A stretch of DNA of 64,000 bases, taken from contig NZ_JAEMSG010000002.1 in assembly GCF_016462945.1 (NCBI RefSeq), positions 9,491 to 73,490 of the forward strand, in the 5' to 3' direction. Source of the DNA: Mycolicibacterium sp. GTDB taxonomy: Bacteria > Actinomycetota > Actinomycetes > Mycobacteriales > Mycobacteriaceae. The translations under genes and the position numbers were made by a program. Positions 5,819 to 13,438 of the stretch are shown here, one piece after another. Under the pieces are notes generated by a model. It searched no databases. It was not told the origin of the DNA and saw only the letters and a program-made list of their open reading frames with translations. How positions within the stretch are numbered: position 1 is the first letter of the stretch; every line of letters starts with the position of its first letter.

Positions 5819-6472
5819 GTGCGATGGCGTGCGGTGGGTGTGGCGGCATCGGTCTGCCTGGGTGCCTGCGGATCTCCGCCGAGCCCGTCGCCGCCGAGTG
5901 GTGCGGCCGAACCCCGGGCGGTGAATGTCACCAACGTCATCAGGGTTCGGTCGGCGCTGCCGCAGGGCTACGAGGTCGCCGACGTGTCCGGTCCGGTGAG
6001 TGCGGCCTCGCTGTGGGGATTCGGGGCCGGCTGGACTGCTGATCCGCCGCAGTGCGCAATCCTGGCCGACCCCGCTCCGTCTGACCGCAGTGCCCGCGGC
6101 CTCTCGGCGTCGGGGTCGGGCGGAACGATCTTTGTTGTGGTGAGCGCGACCCCGGATAGCAAGCCGGGTGCAGACCTTGTGAATCAATGCAGCGGCTGGA
6201 CAATGGCTTTCGGTCACACCAATGCCGAGGTCTCCCGAACCGACGCCCCCGTGATCGAGGGTACGGAGACCGTCGCTTGGGAGGCGATGACACGAACCAT
6301 TGTGGAATCCGGCACTGAGACCAATGCCCGGGCCACGACAGCGCTGGCCTATCTTGACCGCCACGTCGCGTACGTCACCCTGATCACCGACCCCGGGTCC
6401 CCGCACCCGCCGCTGGATCGGGGGTTCGTCGCGGAGCTGCTTGCCACCACCGTGGCGGCGTTGCGGGGTTGA
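5819..6472 (+). CDS. DUF5642-family lipoprotein
   Basis: Lipobox LGAC; DPPQCA motif; Rv0999-like position. Confidence 0.6.
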   Translation: MRWRAVGVAASVCLGACGSPPSPSPPSGAAEPRAVNVTNVIRVRSALPQGYEVADVSGPVSAASLWGFGAGWTADPPQCAILADPAPSDRSARGLSASGSGGTIFVVVSATPDSKPGADLVNQCSGWTMAFGHTNAEVSRTDAPVIEGTETVAWEAMTRTIVESGTETNARATTALAYLDRHVAYVTLITDPGSPHPPLDRGFVAELLATTVAALRG

Positions 6473-6500
6473 GCGGTCGAGTGTGGGTAAGTTGGCGACG

Positions 6501-7154
6501 ATGGGTACGCGCGGAGTCGTCATGGTGGTGCTGTCTGCCGGCCTTGTGGCCGGCTGCGGTGCTGATCGGCCGGCTGCTACTGATATCGCCAAGATCTCCG
6601 AGGTTAAGGCAAGTTTCGGGCCGCAGTTCAAAGTCACCGAGGTGGCCCCGACCGGGATTGACCCCAAAGTGTTGAGTGGTCAGAAACTTCCCGATGGATT
6701 GAAGTTCGAGCCCGCCGAGTGTGTCCAGTTCGCCACCGGGCAACTGGTGCCTGCCGGCACCGAGGGCAATATGGCGGCGGTGTCGGCCGAAGGCGAGGGC
6801 AACCGGTTTGTCGTCATCGCCGTCCAGACCAATGAGGCGGTCCCGGTGGTCGAACCCGGATCCGATTGCCGCAAGGTCGCTTTCGCCGGCGGTACGGTGA
6901 GCGGCACAGTCGAGGCCGTCGAGGTGCCGAGTATCGACGGGACCAAAACGATCGGCGTGCACCGTGTGGTGCAGACGGTGATCGACGGCAAATCCCGCAC
7001 CGGCGAGGTCTATAACTACTCCGCTCACTTCGGTGCCTACCAGGTGATCGTCTCGGCCAATCCGCTTGTGCTACCGGATAAACCGGTGGCCCCGGTCAAC
7101 ACCCAACGCGCCCGAGATCTGCTGATTGCCGGCGTCAACGCCATCCGACGCTGA
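6501..7154 (+). CDS. DUF5642-family lipoprotein (Rv0999-like)
   Basis: Lipobox VAGC; FEPAEC, SAEGEGNRFVVIA and IVSANPL motifs; synteny with pat and pmt. Confidence 0.65.
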   Translation: MGTRGVVMVVLSAGLVAGCGADRPAATDIAKISEVKASFGPQFKVTEVAPTGIDPKVLSGQKLPDGLKFEPAECVQFATGQLVPAGTEGNMAAVSAEGEGNRFVVIAVQTNEAVPVVEPGSDCRKVAFAGGTVSGTVEAVEVPSIDGTKTIGVHRVVQTVIDGKSRTGEVYNYSAHFGAYQVIVSANPLVLPDKPVAPVNTQRARDLLIAGVNAIRR

Positions 7155-7159
7155 ACACT

Positions 7160-7216
7160 CGAGATCGACAGCCGGGCTGTGGTCGGTTGCCTTGGGCAAC
7201 CCTCACGCAGATTTCG
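7160..7216. repeat. 57-bp REP-like imperfect hairpin, copy 1
   Basis: CGAGATCG-N6-GGGCTGTG-N14-GCAACCCT-N6-GATTTCG; same length and block spacing as 8096..8152. Confidence 0.8.
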
Positions 7217-8057
7217 CGAGGGCCAGCCCGCCCCTGCGGCGGAATGCCTCATGTATGCGCCGCAGGATGAAAGCCCGGCTGTGTTCGGAGACCACTCGAA
7301 TTACCAGCCAGTCGCATTGGGCAAGCATCTCAAGGCGACCAATGTCTTTCACGAACTGACTCCTGTCGTAGCGGTGCTGATCACCGTCGTACTCGACGCC
7401 GATCCTCAGCTCCTCCCAACCCATATCGACGAACGCGGTGAGGTATCCGTCGGAGACCCTGATCTGCGTTGTCGGCCGCGGAAAGCCGGCGTCGATCACA
7501 AGCATGCGAAGCCACGACTCGCGTGGAGACTGCGCACCCGCATCAAGCAGGGGTGCGATGCTCCGGGCTTTCCGGACGCCTCGCGCGCCCGGGTAGCGGC
7601 GAGCAAGGGAGAGCACATCTTTGGCCTCGACGCCGGTCGCCGCCGCGAGGCCGTCGAGGTGTGCGACCGCCTCAACCCGGTTCAGGTGGCGAGCAAGATC
7701 GAGTGCAGTTCGGGGTGGTGTACTCACGGCGAAGTCGCGAACTCGGGTGATCTCGTCTGCATCGATGCGCTCATCGCGCACGATGACACCATCCCTGGCG
7801 CGGCGACTGCGCCCGATTAGTTCGATTGATGTGCGTCCTATCCAGGGAACGCCATGCAGCGCCGCGGCGGCTCGGCCCGTGACGATGCCATCTGTCACCC
7901 AGAGGGTGGCCGCTTGAGTGTCCACCTCAAGGGTTCGCTCAGTTCCCTTCTCGATGTAAACATCGGGGTGGATTGCGGTGTATTTCCATCGCAGCTGGCC
8001 CCGGGTGATGCTGCCGCTTCTTAGCGCCTCGCTTCCGATGAAAGACATACCCCGCAT
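7203..8057 (-). CDS. DUF559/AbiEi-like domain protein with C-terminal Vsr-like PD-(D/E)xK endonuclease
   Basis: STPPRTALDLAR, AQSPRESWLR, FVDMGW, IGVEYDGDQH and WLVIRV motifs typical of actinobacterial DUF559 proteins. Confidence 0.8.
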   Translation of the reverse strand: MRGMSFIGSEALRSGSITRGQLRWKYTAIHPDVYIEKGTERTLEVDTQAATLWVTDGIVTGRAAAALHGVPWIGRTSIELIGRSRRARDGVIVRDERIDADEITRVRDFAVSTPPRTALDLARHLNRVEAVAHLDGLAAATGVEAKDVLSLARRYPGARGVRKARSIAPLLDAGAQSPRESWLRMLVIDAGFPRPTTQIRVSDGYLTAFVDMGWEELRIGVEYDGDQHRYDRSQFVKDIGRLEMLAQCDWLVIRVVSEHSRAFILRRIHEAFRRRGGLALAKSA

Positions 8058-8095
8058 AGTGCGTCGGGACCCCGATGCCCCGCCCCTCACTGTGT

Positions 8096-8152
8096 CGAGA
8101 TCGCCGTCAGGGCTGTGCATAAACGGGAATTGCAACCCTGGTGTCGATCTCG
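8096..8152. repeat. 57-bp REP-like imperfect hairpin, copy 2
   Basis: CGAGATCG-N6-GGGCTGTG-N14-GCAACCCT-N6-GATCTCG; outer stem CGAGATCG/CGATCTCG is perfect. Confidence 0.8.
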
Positions 8153-8156
8153 GACG

Positions 8157-9707
8157 TCACCGCCAGCTGGGCAACCACATCTGCATGTGCCAGGTGGACT
8201 GCGAAATCGGAATCCCGGTCAGGATCGGAAACATCCAGGCGAAGTTCGTGATCACCAGCGCCAGGTAGCAACTGACGGCGAGCATGCCCAGGGTTCTGCG
8301 TTCGGCATTGCGGGTGGGCTTGAACAGGATGTCGCCGAGAATCAGAGCGACCATCATGACCAGGAATGGTGCCATCGGCACCGCGTAGAAGAAATACATC
8401 TGGCGGTCGATGGCGGCGAACCACGGTAACCAGCCTGCGCAATATCCCACCAGCGCAACCCCGTACCGCCAGTCGCGGCGAATGAATGCACGCCATGCGG
8501 CATACAGCAACACCGGGACCGCAAGCCACCACAGTGACGGGGTGCCGACGAGCATGACGGCCTTGACACACGACGCCGGGCCGCAGCCTGGCACATCGGA
8601 ATCGTCGATGGCATACAGCACCGGCCGCAGCGACATCGGCCACGTCCACGGCTTGGACTCCCACGGATGGTGATTTCCCATCGAGTTCGTCAGCGTGGAA
8701 TGGAAGTGATAGGCCTTGTAGGTGTAATGCCACAGTGAGCGGATGGCGTCGGGCGGTTGAAACCACTGCCGCGGGCCGATCGACTGCCCCACCTCGTGAC
8801 GATTGATTGCCGTCTCGGATGCGAACCAGGGCGCATACGCCAACAGGTACACCACCGCCGGAATGATCCCGAAAACCGAGGCGGCCGGGCCGAGATCGCG
8901 TCGCAGCACTCCCGTCCACGGCCGAGGCACCCGGTAGGCGTGGCGGGCTGCGACATCAAAAGCCAGTGACATCAGGCCGAAGAACAACACGAAGTACAGG
9001 CCCGACCATTTCGTCGCGCAGGCCAGCCCGAGCAGCACTCCTGCGCCGAAACGCCACCACCTCACGCCAAGCCTTGGGCCCCAGGGGGTTTCGGTGATCC
9101 GGCCCTGAAGAAATGCGGTGTGCATCCGTCCGCGGATCTGATCCCGGTCGACCATGAGCGCTCCAAAGGCCGCCACCACGAAGACGGTCATAAAGTTATC
9201 GAGGAGTGCGGTCCGGGAGGCGACGAAGCTGACCCCGTCGCAGACAGCGAGCAGCCCCGCAATCGCGCCGATCAGTGTGGAACGGCTTATCCGCCGGATG
9301 ATACGGACCACCAGCGCCACCAGAATTACACCGAAGACAGCGCTGGTGAACCGCCAACCCAGACCGGTATAGCCGAACAGCGCCTCGCCAATCGCGATCA
9401 GGTGTTTACCCACCGGAGGATGAACCACCAGGCCGAATCCAGGGTTGTCCTCCACACCGTAGTTGTGCAGCAGTTGCCATGCCTGCGGCGCGTAGTGCTT
9501 CTCATCGAAGATCGGTGTGCCCGCGTCAGTGGGTGAGCCCAGGTTCATCAAGCGCGTCACTGCGCCGATTGCGGTCACGACAGCCGTCGCCGCCCAGCCC
9601 TCCAGACGGTCGGTCGGCCCGAAGTCGGCGACGGGTTCGATGGGTCCGGGGCTGACGAGATCGGCCACCGGATCGGCGGCACGGAGTTCATCGGCCGGGG
9701 CGGTCAC
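8157..9707 (-). CDS. pmt: Protein O-mannosyltransferase (Rv1002c ortholog)
   Basis: IFDEKHYAPQAW, VVHPPVGK, HPWESKPWTWP motifs; multiple transmembrane helices. Confidence 0.93.
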   Translation of the reverse strand: MTAPADELRAADPVADLVSPGPIEPVADFGPTDRLEGWAATAVVTAIGAVTRLMNLGSPTDAGTPIFDEKHYAPQAWQLLHNYGVEDNPGFGLVVHPPVGKHLIAIGEALFGYTGLGWRFTSAVFGVILVALVVRIIRRISRSTLIGAIAGLLAVCDGVSFVASRTALLDNFMTVFVVAAFGALMVDRDQIRGRMHTAFLQGRITETPWGPRLGVRWWRFGAGVLLGLACATKWSGLYFVLFFGLMSLAFDVAARHAYRVPRPWTGVLRRDLGPAASVFGIIPAVVYLLAYAPWFASETAINRHEVGQSIGPRQWFQPPDAIRSLWHYTYKAYHFHSTLTNSMGNHHPWESKPWTWPMSLRPVLYAIDDSDVPGCGPASCVKAVMLVGTPSLWWLAVPVLLYAAWRAFIRRDWRYGVALVGYCAGWLPWFAAIDRQMYFFYAVPMAPFLVMMVALILGDILFKPTRNAERRTLGMLAVSCYLALVITNFAWMFPILTGIPISQSTWHMQMWLPSWR

Positions 9708-9730: not shown

Positions 9731-10570
9731 GTGATGCCCGGTCGCCTGCTGCTCGGTGCCACCCCGCTGGGGCAGGCAGGCGACGCGTCGAAACGCCTGA
9801 TCGACGCGCTGCACGCGGCTGACGTGGTGGCCGCCGAGGACACCCGCCGGGTGCGCACCTTGGCCAAGGCGCTGGATGTCGAGATCACCGGCCGGGTGGT
9901 CAGTCTGTTCGACCAGAACGAGGCGGCTCGAGTGCCCGGCCTGCTGGCCGATATCGCCGCGGGCGCCACGGTGCTGGTCGTCAGCGACGCCGGCATGCCG
10001 CTGATCAACGATCCGGGCTACCGGCTGGTGACGGCGTGCGTGGCGGCAGGGTTGACGGTGTCGTGTATTCCCGGACCGTCGGCGGTGACCACCGCGCTGG
10101 CCGTGTCCGGTCTGCCGTCGGACCGGTTCTGCTTCGAGGGTTTCGGTCCGCGTAAGAAGGCGGCCCGGCGGGCGTGGCTGGCCACCTTTGCCGCCGAGGC
10201 ACGCACGGTGGTGTTCTTCGAATCACCGAGACGACTCGCTGACTGCCTGCGCGACGCCGTCGACGAATTAGGCGCCGAACGCCGTGCGGTGGTGTGCCGG
10301 GAGTTGACCAAGGTTCACGAGGAGATCAGGCGCGGCACGCTCGGTGAGCTCGCGGAGTGGTCGGCTGACGGGGTGCTTGGCGAGATCACCGTGGTGCTGG
10401 GCGGCGCGACTCCGGTCACCGATCCCGAGTCCCTCGTCGCCGAAGTCGGTGTGCTTATTGCCGGCGGGATGCGGGTGAAAGATGCCTGCGCCCGGGTGGT
10501 CGATGCGCATGCGGGCGCCCCATCGCGACGGGAACTTTACGACGCGGTCCTGCGCGCTCGTGGGTCTTGA
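9731..10570 (+). CDS. rsmI: 16S rRNA C1402 2'-O-methyltransferase
   Basis: ATPLG, AAEDTR, SDAGMPLINDPG, FFESPRR, RELTKVHEE motifs. Confidence 0.93.
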   Translation: MMPGRLLLGATPLGQAGDASKRLIDALHAADVVAAEDTRRVRTLAKALDVEITGRVVSLFDQNEAARVPGLLADIAAGATVLVVSDAGMPLINDPGYRLVTACVAAGLTVSCIPGPSAVTTALAVSGLPSDRFCFEGFGPRKKAARRAWLATFAAEARTVVFFESPRRLADCLRDAVDELGAERRAVVCRELTKVHEEIRRGTLGELAEWSADGVLGEITVVLGGATPVTDPESLVAEVGVLIAGGMRVKDACARVVDAHAGAPSRRELYDAVLRARGS

Positions 10571-11790
10571 ACCACGATCGGTGCTGCTTTGTGTAGGCAC
10601 TCCTGCCATTCGGCATCCGCGGCCGAGTCGGCGGTGATGCCGCCACCGACACCGAGTACGGCTCCGCCGCGCGCGTCGAACTCCACGGTGCGGATCGCCA
10701 CATTCAGTTCGCAGCCCGCCACCGGAGACGCCAGGCCCACCGTTCCGCAGTAAACTCCGCGCCGGTGTGGTTCCCACTGCGAAAGAAGTTGTCGCGCGCG
10801 GGTTTTGGGTGTGCCGGTAACCGATGCCGGCGGGAAGGCGGCGTTGAGCAACGCTGAGTTCGGCAGATCAGTCGGCACCTGTGCCGACACTGTCGAGACC
10901 AGATGCCACACTCCGGGTGCCGGGTACACGGCCAGCAGTTCGGTGACGGTCACCGAGCCCGTCACAGCCACCCGCCCGAGGTCGTTACGCACCAGGTCGA
11001 CGATCATGATGTTCTCCGCGACATCCTTGGCTGAAGCGAGTAACTGGCCCGGTTCGGCGTGCCAGGGAAGCGTTCCCTTGATGGGGCTGGAGCGCACCTC
11101 GGTGCCGACCCGGCGCAGAAACAGTTCCGGCGACAGCGAGGCCACCGCACCCCACTCGCCAGCCAGATAGGCCCCTCGAGCCGGGCCGGTTCGTGACACC
11201 GCATCGGCGAAGAAATCCAACGGCGAGCCGACGACCGTGCCAGCGAACTGGGTGCAGACACATGCCTGGTAGACCTCGCCGGCGCGAATTGCCTCAAGGC
11301 AGGACAACACGCCGGCCCGGTGCTGCTCGACATCCGGTTGCTGCCAGGTGATCTCGCAGGGTTGACGAACCGGGGGTACCGCGAGTGCGGCTGACAACCA
11401 GTCCGCACGTGTTTCGCCGGAAAGGCTTTCGAACCACCAGCAGCCGGTCCGGTCCAGGCGAAGCACGCAATCGGTCCATCCGCCTGCCGCTTCCGGAACT
11501 CGCGGCGGAAGTCCGTCGCTACCGGGGTCGGGATAGGACAGGTAGCCGATCCACCCCCCGCCGACGGTGTCGGACTGTGCCGGTGGCGATACCCGGTGGG
11601 GCGAATCGGGGAACACCTCGGCGGGCGGGACCGGTCGCACCGCCACGCTGGGCGCGATCACCGCGGAGGAGCCGAACCATTCGCCGACCAGCGCGGCCGG
11701 CGGTGGTAATCCGCGACTGCGAGCGCCCGCCGCGACCGCGAGCAATACGTCATCGGCAGCGCCGAGCGCACCCAACCGTTCGGTCAGCAT
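10537..11790 (-). CDS. pabB: Aminodeoxychorismate synthase component I
   Basis: GEVYQAC, SPELFL, SPIKGT, KDVAENIMIVDLVRNDLG, FPPASVTGTPK; the N-terminal ORF extension to 11901 is only the repeat. Confidence 0.9.
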   Translation of the reverse strand: MLTERLGALGAADDVLLAVAAGARSRGLPPPAALVGEWFGSSAVIAPSVAVRPVPPAEVFPDSPHRVSPPAQSDTVGGGWIGYLSYPDPGSDGLPPRVPEAAGGWTDCVLRLDRTGCWWFESLSGETRADWLSAALAVPPVRQPCEITWQQPDVEQHRAGVLSCLEAIRAGEVYQACVCTQFAGTVVGSPLDFFADAVSRTGPARGAYLAGEWGAVASLSPELFLRRVGTEVRSSPIKGTLPWHAEPGQLLASAKDVAENIMIVDLVRNDLGRVAVTGSVTVTELLAVYPAPGVWHLVSTVSAQVPTDLPNSALLNAAFPPASVTGTPKTRARQLLSQWEPHRRGVYCGTVGLASPVAGCELNVAIRTVEFDARGGAVLGVGGGITADSAADAEWQECLHKAAPIVVQDPRARRTAS

Positions 11791-11794
11791 GGCT

Positions 11795-13438
11795 CTAGCT
11801 CGCGCCCTCATCGCGGCGCGAGGCCCCGCTCGCGCCCTCATCGCGGCGCGAGGCCCCGCTCGCGCCCTCATCGCGGCGCGAGGCCCCGCTCGCGGCCTCA
11901 TAGCGGGGGAATACCCCGCTCGGCGCCGGCAGCGCGGTGCCCGGCGCCAGGGGTGTGTTCAGGGCGGCGAAGTCGCGCTGACCGGAGGATTGACCCAGCA
12001 GGTCAAGCAATCTGGCGGCTGAGTCCGGCATGACCGGCTGTACCAATATCGACGCTGTCCGCACCGCCTCCAGTGTCGTGTAAAGCACGGTGCGGAAGCG
12101 GATCTGATCGGCTTGCGCCTCTGACTTACGCAGCACCCAGGGTTCCTGGGCTGAGAAGTACCGGTTCGCCGCACCGAGCATCAGCCAGATCGCCTCCAGC
12201 CCCTGATGTATCGCCTGGTCGTCGAAGGCGGCGCGGACGCGCTGCAACAGACCGCCGGCCAGGGTCAGCAGTTCGGTGTCCTCGGCACTGAACTCGCCCG
12301 GTTCGGGCACGCGGGCGTCGAGGTTCTTGTTCACCATCGACAGCGAGCGCTGTGCCAGGTTGCCCAACTCGTTGGCCAGATCGGTGTTGATCCGAGTGAT
12401 AATGCCCTCTTCGCTGTAGCTGCCGTCTTGGCCGAACGGGACCTCGCGCAGCAGGAAGTAGCGAACCTGATCGACGCCGAAGCTGTTCACCAATGACACC
12501 GGGTCGACGACGTTTCCGACCGACTTGCTCATCTTCTCGCCGCGGTTGTAAAGGAATCCGTGCGCAAACACCCTGCGCGGTAGGGGGATTCCCGCCGACA
12601 TCAAAAACGCCGGCCAGTACACGGTGTGGAAACGGATGATGTCCTTCCCGATCATGTGCAGATCGGCAGGCCAGTAACGTTGGTAGAGAGCCGAATCCGT
12701 GTCCGGATAGCCTGCTCCGGTCAGGTAGTTGGTCAATGCGTCGACCCACACGTACATCACGTGGTCAGGGTCCCCGGGCACCGGGACGCCCCAGGTAAAC
12801 GACGTGCGCGATATCGACAGGTCGCGCAGGCCGCCGGAGACGAAGCTCACCACTTCGTTGCGGCGCACCTCCGGAGCGATGAAGTGCGGATTCTCGTTGT
12901 AGTGCGCCAGCAGGCGCTCGGCGTAGGCCGACAGCCGGAAGAAGTAGGTCTGCTCCTCGGTCCAGGTGACCGGCGTGCCGGTCTCGGTGGCGACCCGGGT
13001 GTGGTCGGTCCCGACTTCGGTCTCTGCGTCGGTGAAGAACCGCTCGTCGCGCACCGAATACCAGCCGGAGTAGCTGTCGAGGTAGATATCGCCCTGTGCG
13101 ACCATCTGCTGCCAGATCGCCGTCGACGCGGCGTAGTGGTCGGGGTCGGTGGTGCGGATGAACCGGTCGAAGGAGATGTTCAGCAGCTCCTCCAATCGCT
13201 GGAACTGATCGGAGTTGCGGCGGGCGAAATCAGCGGTCGGTATGCCCTCGGCGGCGGCAGCCTGGGCCATCTTCAAGCCGTGCTCGTCGGTACCGGTCAA
13301 GAACCGCACATCGAAACCGTCCAGCCGCTTGAACCGGGCGATCGCATCGGTGGCAACGTACTCGTACGCATGCCCGACGTGCGGTGCGCCGTTGGGATAG
13401 GCGATCGCGGTGGTCAGGTAGTACGGGATCTTGCTCAT
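11795..13438 (-). CDS. metG: Methionyl-tRNA synthetase with repeat-encoded C-terminal tail
   Basis: [10 protein letters not shown] (HIGH), GTDEHG, KMSKS motifs; ends in ([10 protein letters not shown])-type repeats. Confidence 0.96.
11798..11902. repeat. 30-bp tandem repeat (3 exact copies plus a degenerate partial), MIRU/VNTR-like
   Basis: GCTCGCGCCCTCATCGCGGCGCGAGGCCCC x3 at 11798-11887, then GCTCGCGGCCTCATA. Confidence 0.95.

Follow-up and report, generated by a model that had tools for sequence, protein, structure and literature searches.

The window analysed here, a 64,000-nt stretch of mycobacterial DNA, contains a compact cassette composed of a single gene and two palindromes. The gene (7203..8048, minus strand) encodes a protein of 281 aa and is bracketed by two palindromic elements of ~58 nt lying in direct orientation, at 7159-7217 and 8095-8153. 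Direct-repeat segments link the two elements (7159-7181 with 8095-8117, 83% identity; 7196-7216 with 8132-8152, 71%), each pair being spaced by 936 nt, and four common blocks are exact and occupy equal offsets in both, the spacers and the loop having diverged. This confirms the two direct, equal-length elements with four shared blocks that had been reported in a preliminary description of this DNA. With up to 3 mismatches allowed, the two block patterns had 8 and 10 matches across the window, versus 1.8 and 3.5 expected, and the two element sites were the only ones matching without mismatch.

The cassette is wedged between the convergent stops of two genes, both pointing their 3' ends toward it. 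On the left, a DUF5642 lipoprotein gene (6441..7154, plus strand; Pfam DUF5642, E 8e-67), also found as neighbour in three related loci (G065, G062 and L250), has its stop ending at 7154, 4-5 nt from the 3' palindrome; on the right stands pmt, encoding a protein O-mannosyltransferase (8157..9707, minus strand; Pfam PMT, PMT_2 and PMT_4TMC), with its stop at 8157-8159. These stop positions bear out the earlier statement that the cassette fills the gap between two convergent genes, and the stop codon of the nuclease gene (TCA, 7203-7205) does lie within the first element, as had been noted. No short target-site duplication was visible at the junctions read, in agreement with the preliminary description, no transposase domain was detected by Pfam in the cassette protein, and none of the loci read showed a transposase linked to the repeats. 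The cassette is in this respect unlike insertion sequences and MITEs. An integron attC-like cassette, raised by shape alone, was discarded, with neither integrase nor arrays.

The start of the gene had been placed at a TTG (8135); we took instead the ATG at 8048 as the true start because homologues are 280-286 aa long. Such homologues are numerous (2573 at E<=1e-20). The protein had been presented as a DUF559 protein, and only part of this holds: the Pfam match to DUF559 (PF04480) is weak and falls below the cut-off (17.1 bits, threshold 20.6), as does that to MTES_1575 (PF18741; 24.4 bits, threshold 38.2), placing the protein, as judged from profile scores, as related to, yet formally outside, the DUF559 and REase_MTES_1575 models. 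NCBIfam and PDB sequence searches with the protein returned no match, and AbiEi_1 of Pfam was weakly matched in 29/42 homologues. An AlphaFold (AF2) model computed from 42 sequences reached a pLDDT of 89. Compared by Foldseek, its first ~185 residues matched the AbiEi antitoxin 6y8q_A (E 2.5e-4, probability 1.0, 188 columns), and its last ~90 residues, with a Vsr/EDxHD-like domain at ~190-270, resembled PD-(D/E)xK nucleases, including the Vsr-like homing endonuclease I-Bth0305I (3r3p_B; 107 columns aligned at TMt 0.63, E a weak 1.1). Furthermore, residues D208, E/D219, D/E221, H225 and D235 are kept in 41-42 of the 42 sequences, and E255 and H256 are likewise conserved among homologues. The fold matches and these catalytic-type residues, which back the earlier reading of a Vsr-like PD-(D/E)xK nuclease with an AbiEi-like N-terminus, therefore indicate that the protein joins a DNA-binding module to a nuclease that appears to be active.

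Both palindromes belong to one type, named R1 here, for which a covariance model was built from an alignment of 21 family sequences. This alignment supports a covarying 24-bp stem with 83% of cells paired, and none of 500 shuffles attained the covariation observed. The 5' palindrome (8095..8153, minus strand) is well formed: it scores 58.1 bits (E 1.5e-12), folds at -27 to -29.5 kcal/mol (z -3.1 and -3.6), and lies 4 nt past the pmt stop, with the ATG 47-105 nt downstream. The 3' palindrome (7159..7217, minus strand) is degenerate, scoring 45.9 bits on the gene-sense strand (E 4.8e-9; nhmmer E 2.1e-8), and its left arm contains the last five codons and the TGA stop, directly before the AGGG core. 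The earlier claim that both elements fold as hairpins is thus upheld for the upstream element (-29.5 kcal/mol) and not for the degenerate, partly coding downstream one, whose fold is weak (z -0.5 and -1.4). An orthologous copy of the 3' palindrome is kept in three relatives (L250, L252 and L251). A strand bias deduced from G-T wobbles was considered and dropped, the conserved TC/AG imperfection amounting to one wobble plus one mismatch on either strand and being therefore uninformative. An Rfam search of the window gave chance-level matches only, with no TRIT family among them.

The two copies differ in features suggestive of distinct functions. The loop of the 5' palindrome carries a DnaA-box-like motif, TTATGCACA (8114..8122, minus strand), one mismatch from TTATCCACA, which is present exactly in the close relatives L252 and L251. 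With at most one mismatch, TTATCCACA was found upstream on the sense strand in 32/78 family loci, peaking at -78 from the start, versus 1/78 downstream flanks and 1/310 background windows. Across family loci, 5' copies stand at a fixed distance from the gene start, 3' copies hold the TGA stop at a fixed place directly before the AGGG core, and 3' palindromes extend from about -20 to +45 relative to the stop. Solo R1 palindromes, standing away from any family gene, lack the TTATCCACA loop motif.

By binding to inverted repeats in the promoters of their own genes, AbiEi proteins autoregulate. The cassette resembles the AbiE system in that its N-terminal ~185 residues share the fold of AbiEi antitoxins (S. 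agalactiae 6y8q, M. tuberculosis Rv2827c) and in that a palindrome lies upstream of the gene; it differs from it in that no gene for AbiEii, the DUF1814 nucleotidyltransferase, is present, a nuclease domain being fused instead, and in that a second palindrome stands at the 3' end with solo copies elsewhere. A single-chain toxin-antitoxin or abortive-infection module, in which the AbiEi-like domain restrains the fused nuclease toxin and the palindromes serve as operators, would agree with the fold match, with the intact nuclease residues and with the annotation of homologues in their sources as type IV TA AbiEi family antitoxin. We hold such a module to be very improbable, as the cassette has a single open reading frame, flanked by pmt and by the lipoprotein gene or arcA, with no AbiEii partner, and as each genome has 3-16 of these genes, placed at the ends of core genes and outside defence islands; neither the 3' palindrome nor the solo copies would be accounted for.

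The association between gene and palindromes extends well beyond this locus. Family genes were recovered in all 61 genus genomes searched (3-16 per genome), where they are annotated just as "AbiEi antitoxin" or "DUF559"; the source names of homologues place this genus as Mycobacterium/Mycolicibacterium. To characterize their flanks, we compiled a census of 53 full-length genes from five well-assembled relatives (1-20 contigs) and the window's own genome. Similarity between the upstream and downstream flanks lay above the 95th percentile of the cross pairs for 36 of these genes and surpassed every one of the 104 cross comparisons for 29; with wider windows revealing four further pairs, at least 40/53 genes possess their own palindrome pair. 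In the clade of the window, the covariance model placed an R1 palindrome on both sides of every cassette (26/26), and the other paralogues of the own genome each have their own pair, of different sequence. The hairpin family had been proposed to be associated with DUF559-like genes, and the covariance model and flank census together show this association to be strong and general. A rough heuristic based on open-reading-frame orientation detected convergent neighbours around 28/53 cassettes.

The two copies of one cassette evolve in concert. Over the variable stem columns of 24 R1 cassettes, identity between the 5' and 3' copies was 0.72 within a cassette, versus 0.49 (5'-5'), 0.50 (3'-3') and 0.48 (5'-3') between cassettes, and in 12 of the 24 no 5' copy of another cassette beat the cassette's own 3' copy as closest match. 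The two copies are thus either homogenised or both held to one co-evolving recognition specificity.

Several cassettes depart from the simple pair. Three palindromes form a tandem array upstream of the gene in L045 (G024; 1182-1447), two stand in tandem downstream in L043 (2323-2487), and a 130-nt double-hairpin repeat is present on both sides of the cassette in L088 (G018). On the contig of the window itself, a second family gene (C82:74426-75301, equivalent to window positions ~64936-65811 and hence just past its right end), 40% identical to the first, has its own palindrome pair, CTGCGCCCAGATCGCGAT...ATCGCGATCTGGGCGCAGACTCG, and its locus is common to G018, G024, G011 and G065. With 3.17 Mb in 224 contigs and a completeness of 98%, the own genome is that of a mycobacterial MAG of reduced size, the other genus genomes searched that are at least 95% complete spanning 3.8-8.6 Mb, yet it retains 4-5 such cassettes.

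Palindromes also occur without a gene. The own genome contains six R1 copies, namely the pair of the window and four solos (on contigs C189, C176, C30 and C220), which makes R1 a low-copy family, unlike a high-copy REP. All these solos carry the stem variant of the resident cassette, CCGAGATCGAC, solos with the cassette's stem variant were likewise observed in strain B14F4, and the palindrome types of the other own-genome paralogues have one or two solos each. A scan of public genomes for the exact core, with one genome per species, listed 80 loci, in which 66 full R1 sites were found, nearly all in records of Mycobacterium or Actinomycetota MAGs; 53 of these 66 sites are solo and 13 stand beside a family gene. 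Since 8 of the 80 core matches fall within 66 nt of a family gene, while such flanks represent an estimated ~0.04% of the genome, the association is strong, though most copies are solo. A chance or local duplication, considered when a strict block pattern found only two copies in the own genome, was overturned by the covariance model.

Whether solos are scars left by cassette deletion was examined at individual sites. At the C189 solo site, no cassette was found in the loci of 11 relatives checked, among which the hairpin itself was present only in the own genome and G053; solos are therefore not simply deletion scars, although this origin fits the pmt site of one relative (G013, see below).

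Other hairpin families are present in the own genome. A long palindrome family (CGCGAGCAGACGCAAA...; CGCGAGCAGACGCAAAATCGCAC...GTGCGATTTTGCGTCTGCTCGCG) has three copies (C175:9241-9304, C204:14107-14174 and C29:7383-7458), and was beside none of the 78 family genes that were inspected; a cognate gene therefore need not accompany every gene-end palindrome. The CGCGAGCAGACGCAAAATCGCAC...GTGCGATTTTGCGTCTGCTCGCG palindromes resemble the gene-end palindrome of M. tuberculosis and appear TRIT-like. The seed-based hairpin scan misses imperfect stems and undercounts. We know of no protein gene associated with TRIT. By description only, the elements studied here can be likened to it: TRIT is a conserved palindrome of ~50-60 nt, confined to mycobacteria, that occurs at gene ends, overlapping the stop and often placed between convergent genes. 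It was described at about -8 relative to the stop (Gardner et al. 2011, PMC3152330), and its palindromes are now proposed as RNase III sites (PMC13714241).

The history of the pmt locus was reconstructed by comparing orthologous sites. At least 18 species have a family gene adjoining the pmt stop, as a rule with arcA on the other side; the lipoprotein gene takes the place of arcA in the own genome, in G065, in G062 and in a metagenome relative 93% identical. Empty sites in relatives, which the preliminary description had advised looking for, do exist: the gene is absent in G021, where 23 nt separate the convergent stops. In G013 the same site holds a solo R1 palindrome with the stem variant of a neighbouring clade, and in G016 the gene lies in the opposite orientation. 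In a tree of 75 proteins obtained by a quick search, all 18 pmt-locus copies fell into one clade of 29 (SH-aLRT 95), inside which 11 copies from other loci are nested. This nesting indicates that the pmt-locus cassette is old and has seeded copies at new loci. At the pmt locus, the gene is largely vertically inherited, hairpins included; vertical conservation without hairpins, which would have spoken against the earlier proposal, is not what we observed. The proposal of a mobile cassette thus holds insofar as the cassette is present, absent, reduced to a solo palindrome or inverted at orthologous sites, with new-locus copies in the pmt clade; of recent or frequent movement no sign was seen. 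Among the 53 census proteins, the closest pair is only 75% identical (73% for the best pair within one genome); any movement is therefore rare and turnover slow.

A second intergenic site displays every one of these states. In G062 and G083 it is empty, with stops 11-13 nt apart and no palindrome; G052 has a weak solo R1-like palindrome; G018 and G057 have an R1 cassette; G051 has that same cassette in inverted orientation; and the cassette in G065 belongs to a distant clade and is framed by another palindrome. The inversion was read by comparing L129 (G051:C1:4793000-4794800) with L033 (G018), with two R1 palindromes on each side, and fits recombination between palindrome arms. Palindrome type follows the gene clade, not the locus. 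The presence at one locus of two clades with different palindromes, together with a 5' loop motif shared across loci, therefore rules out a simple duplication of a pre-existing target hairpin.

One alternative would make the palindromes an independent REP- or MITE-like repeat, spread by another agent; the nuclease gene would be a homing-type selfish gene that targets palindromes already present and inserts into or beside them, the pair corresponding to the duplicated target. Solos far outnumbering gene-flanking copies, solos at sites without a cassette in relatives, the preference of cassettes for intergenic gene ends and the existence of gene-less palindrome families all go in this direction. 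We nonetheless consider it quite unlikely, as palindrome type tracks the cassette clade at a shared locus, 5' copies have a gene-specific loop motif missing in solos, the stop codon occupies a fixed place in the 3' copy, and no transposase accompanies the repeats at any of the loci read.

A second alternative sees here an ordinary resident gene equipped with regulatory hairpins. The protein would be a regulator or a repair or defence nuclease with no role in making or moving palindromes, the 5' palindrome acting as operator/promoter and pmt terminator, the 3' palindrome as a terminator or a TRIT-kind RNase III site, and the pair staying alike through local duplication and gene conversion. This would suit the age and mostly vertical inheritance of the gene at the pmt locus, a 5' palindrome and TTATCCACA motif at a fixed distance from the start, the absence of recent copies among those found, and the fold shared with AbiEi proteins, known to autoregulate through inverted repeats. 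In addition, overlap with stop codons and a role in shaping 3' ends are known from TRIT palindromes (PMC3152330, PMC13714241). By contrast, it does not account for a clade-specific palindrome type at both ends, for cassettes of different clades with different palindromes at the same site, for solos elsewhere sharing the resident stem variant, or for new-locus copies carrying both palindromes, and we regard it as unlikely.

We favour, as somewhat the more probable account, a reading in which the region, as one instance of a palindrome-gene-palindrome cassette widespread in mycobacteria, is engaged in a slow, selfish, repair-driven partnership between repeat and enzyme; each of its rivals explains less. 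The AbiEi-like module would bind the inverted-repeat arms of the palindromes, the 5' copy possibly acting as an autoregulatory operator as with AbiEi, and the nuclease would nick or cut at or near the bound palindromes. Recombinational repair between copies could then keep the palindromes alike and occasionally copy the whole cassette into another palindrome, the two flanking copies providing homology arms, while recombination between copies could invert the cassette, or delete it and leave a solo palindrome. Such a homing-like, repair-driven chemistry would operate in place of HUH transposition. This mechanism does not account for palindromes arriving at palindrome-free sites. In a wider and more tentative formulation, which we put forward as a possibility rather than an expectation, mycobacterial gene-end palindrome families (R1, and possibly TRIT-like ones) may owe their creation, their uniformity and their occasional multiplication to dedicated AbiEi-nuclease fusions acting through break-induced gene conversion, each fusion being encoded between two copies of its own palindrome. 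No published description of a palindrome-gene-palindrome unit was found in the literature mentioning DUF559 or dealing with AbiEi and mycobacterial palindromes, and the unit seems to be undescribed.

Among known systems, the parallel drawn earlier with RAYT/REP loci, involving here an unrelated enzyme, appears apt, the gene being framed by its own dispersed palindromes and the enzyme combining AbiEi and PD-(D/E)xK parts. As in the REP/REPIN-RAYT systems (REPtrons) of Proteobacteria, an enzyme gene is framed by a palindromic repeat that is also dispersed among gene ends, a particular repeat type goes with each gene lineage, and inheritance is mostly vertical with slow turnover. Unlike them, the enzyme is an AbiEi-like and PD-(D/E)xK fusion, whereas RAYTs are HUH Y1 transposases of the IS200/IS605 TnpA type; the flanking copies lie in direct orientation, whereas the REP pairs of RAYT loci are inverted; and copy number is low (6), with several paralogous gene/repeat pairs in one genome. 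The EDxHD/Vsr-like homing endonucleases offer a second comparison: the C-terminal fold and the conserved acidic and His residues are shared with I-Bth0305I (3r3p), and the gene is likewise present or absent at conserved sites. Unlike these enzymes, the cassette gene is located outside any intron or intein and fused to an AbiEi-like module, and the flanking palindromes stay intact after insertion.

These results bear on several aspects of mycobacterial genome biology. The role of gene-end palindromes (TRIT and the like), as terminators or RNase III sites, is still debated; if the nuclease partners with its framing palindrome, both the origin of the palindromes and the role of the gene family become testable. 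If our reading is true, the cassette would represent a second, mechanistically different system of repeat and dedicated enzyme beside REP/RAYT. DUF559 proteins have been reported as enriched among predicted inversion targets, with an odds ratio of 14 (PMC9881135), an enrichment that fits the inversions seen here and whose prominence would be explained by the same partnership, if true. Site-specific nucleases recognising structured DNA of ~58 nt could, under the same proviso, serve as tools.

Two further repeats were observed in the course of the analysis. In the GC-rich own genome, two identical AT-rich hairpins of 42 nt (ATAAAGAAACACCCCCCGGTTTTTCGGGGGGTGTTCCTTAAT; C195:18820-18861 and C206:4959-5000) have the appearance of a classical intrinsic terminator and could be the sign of a segment that was duplicated or is of foreign origin. 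Within the window, a pabB-like open reading frame (10537..11901, minus strand) contains, in its N-terminal part, a 30-nt tandem repeat at ~11800-11901, located at or before its likely true start.
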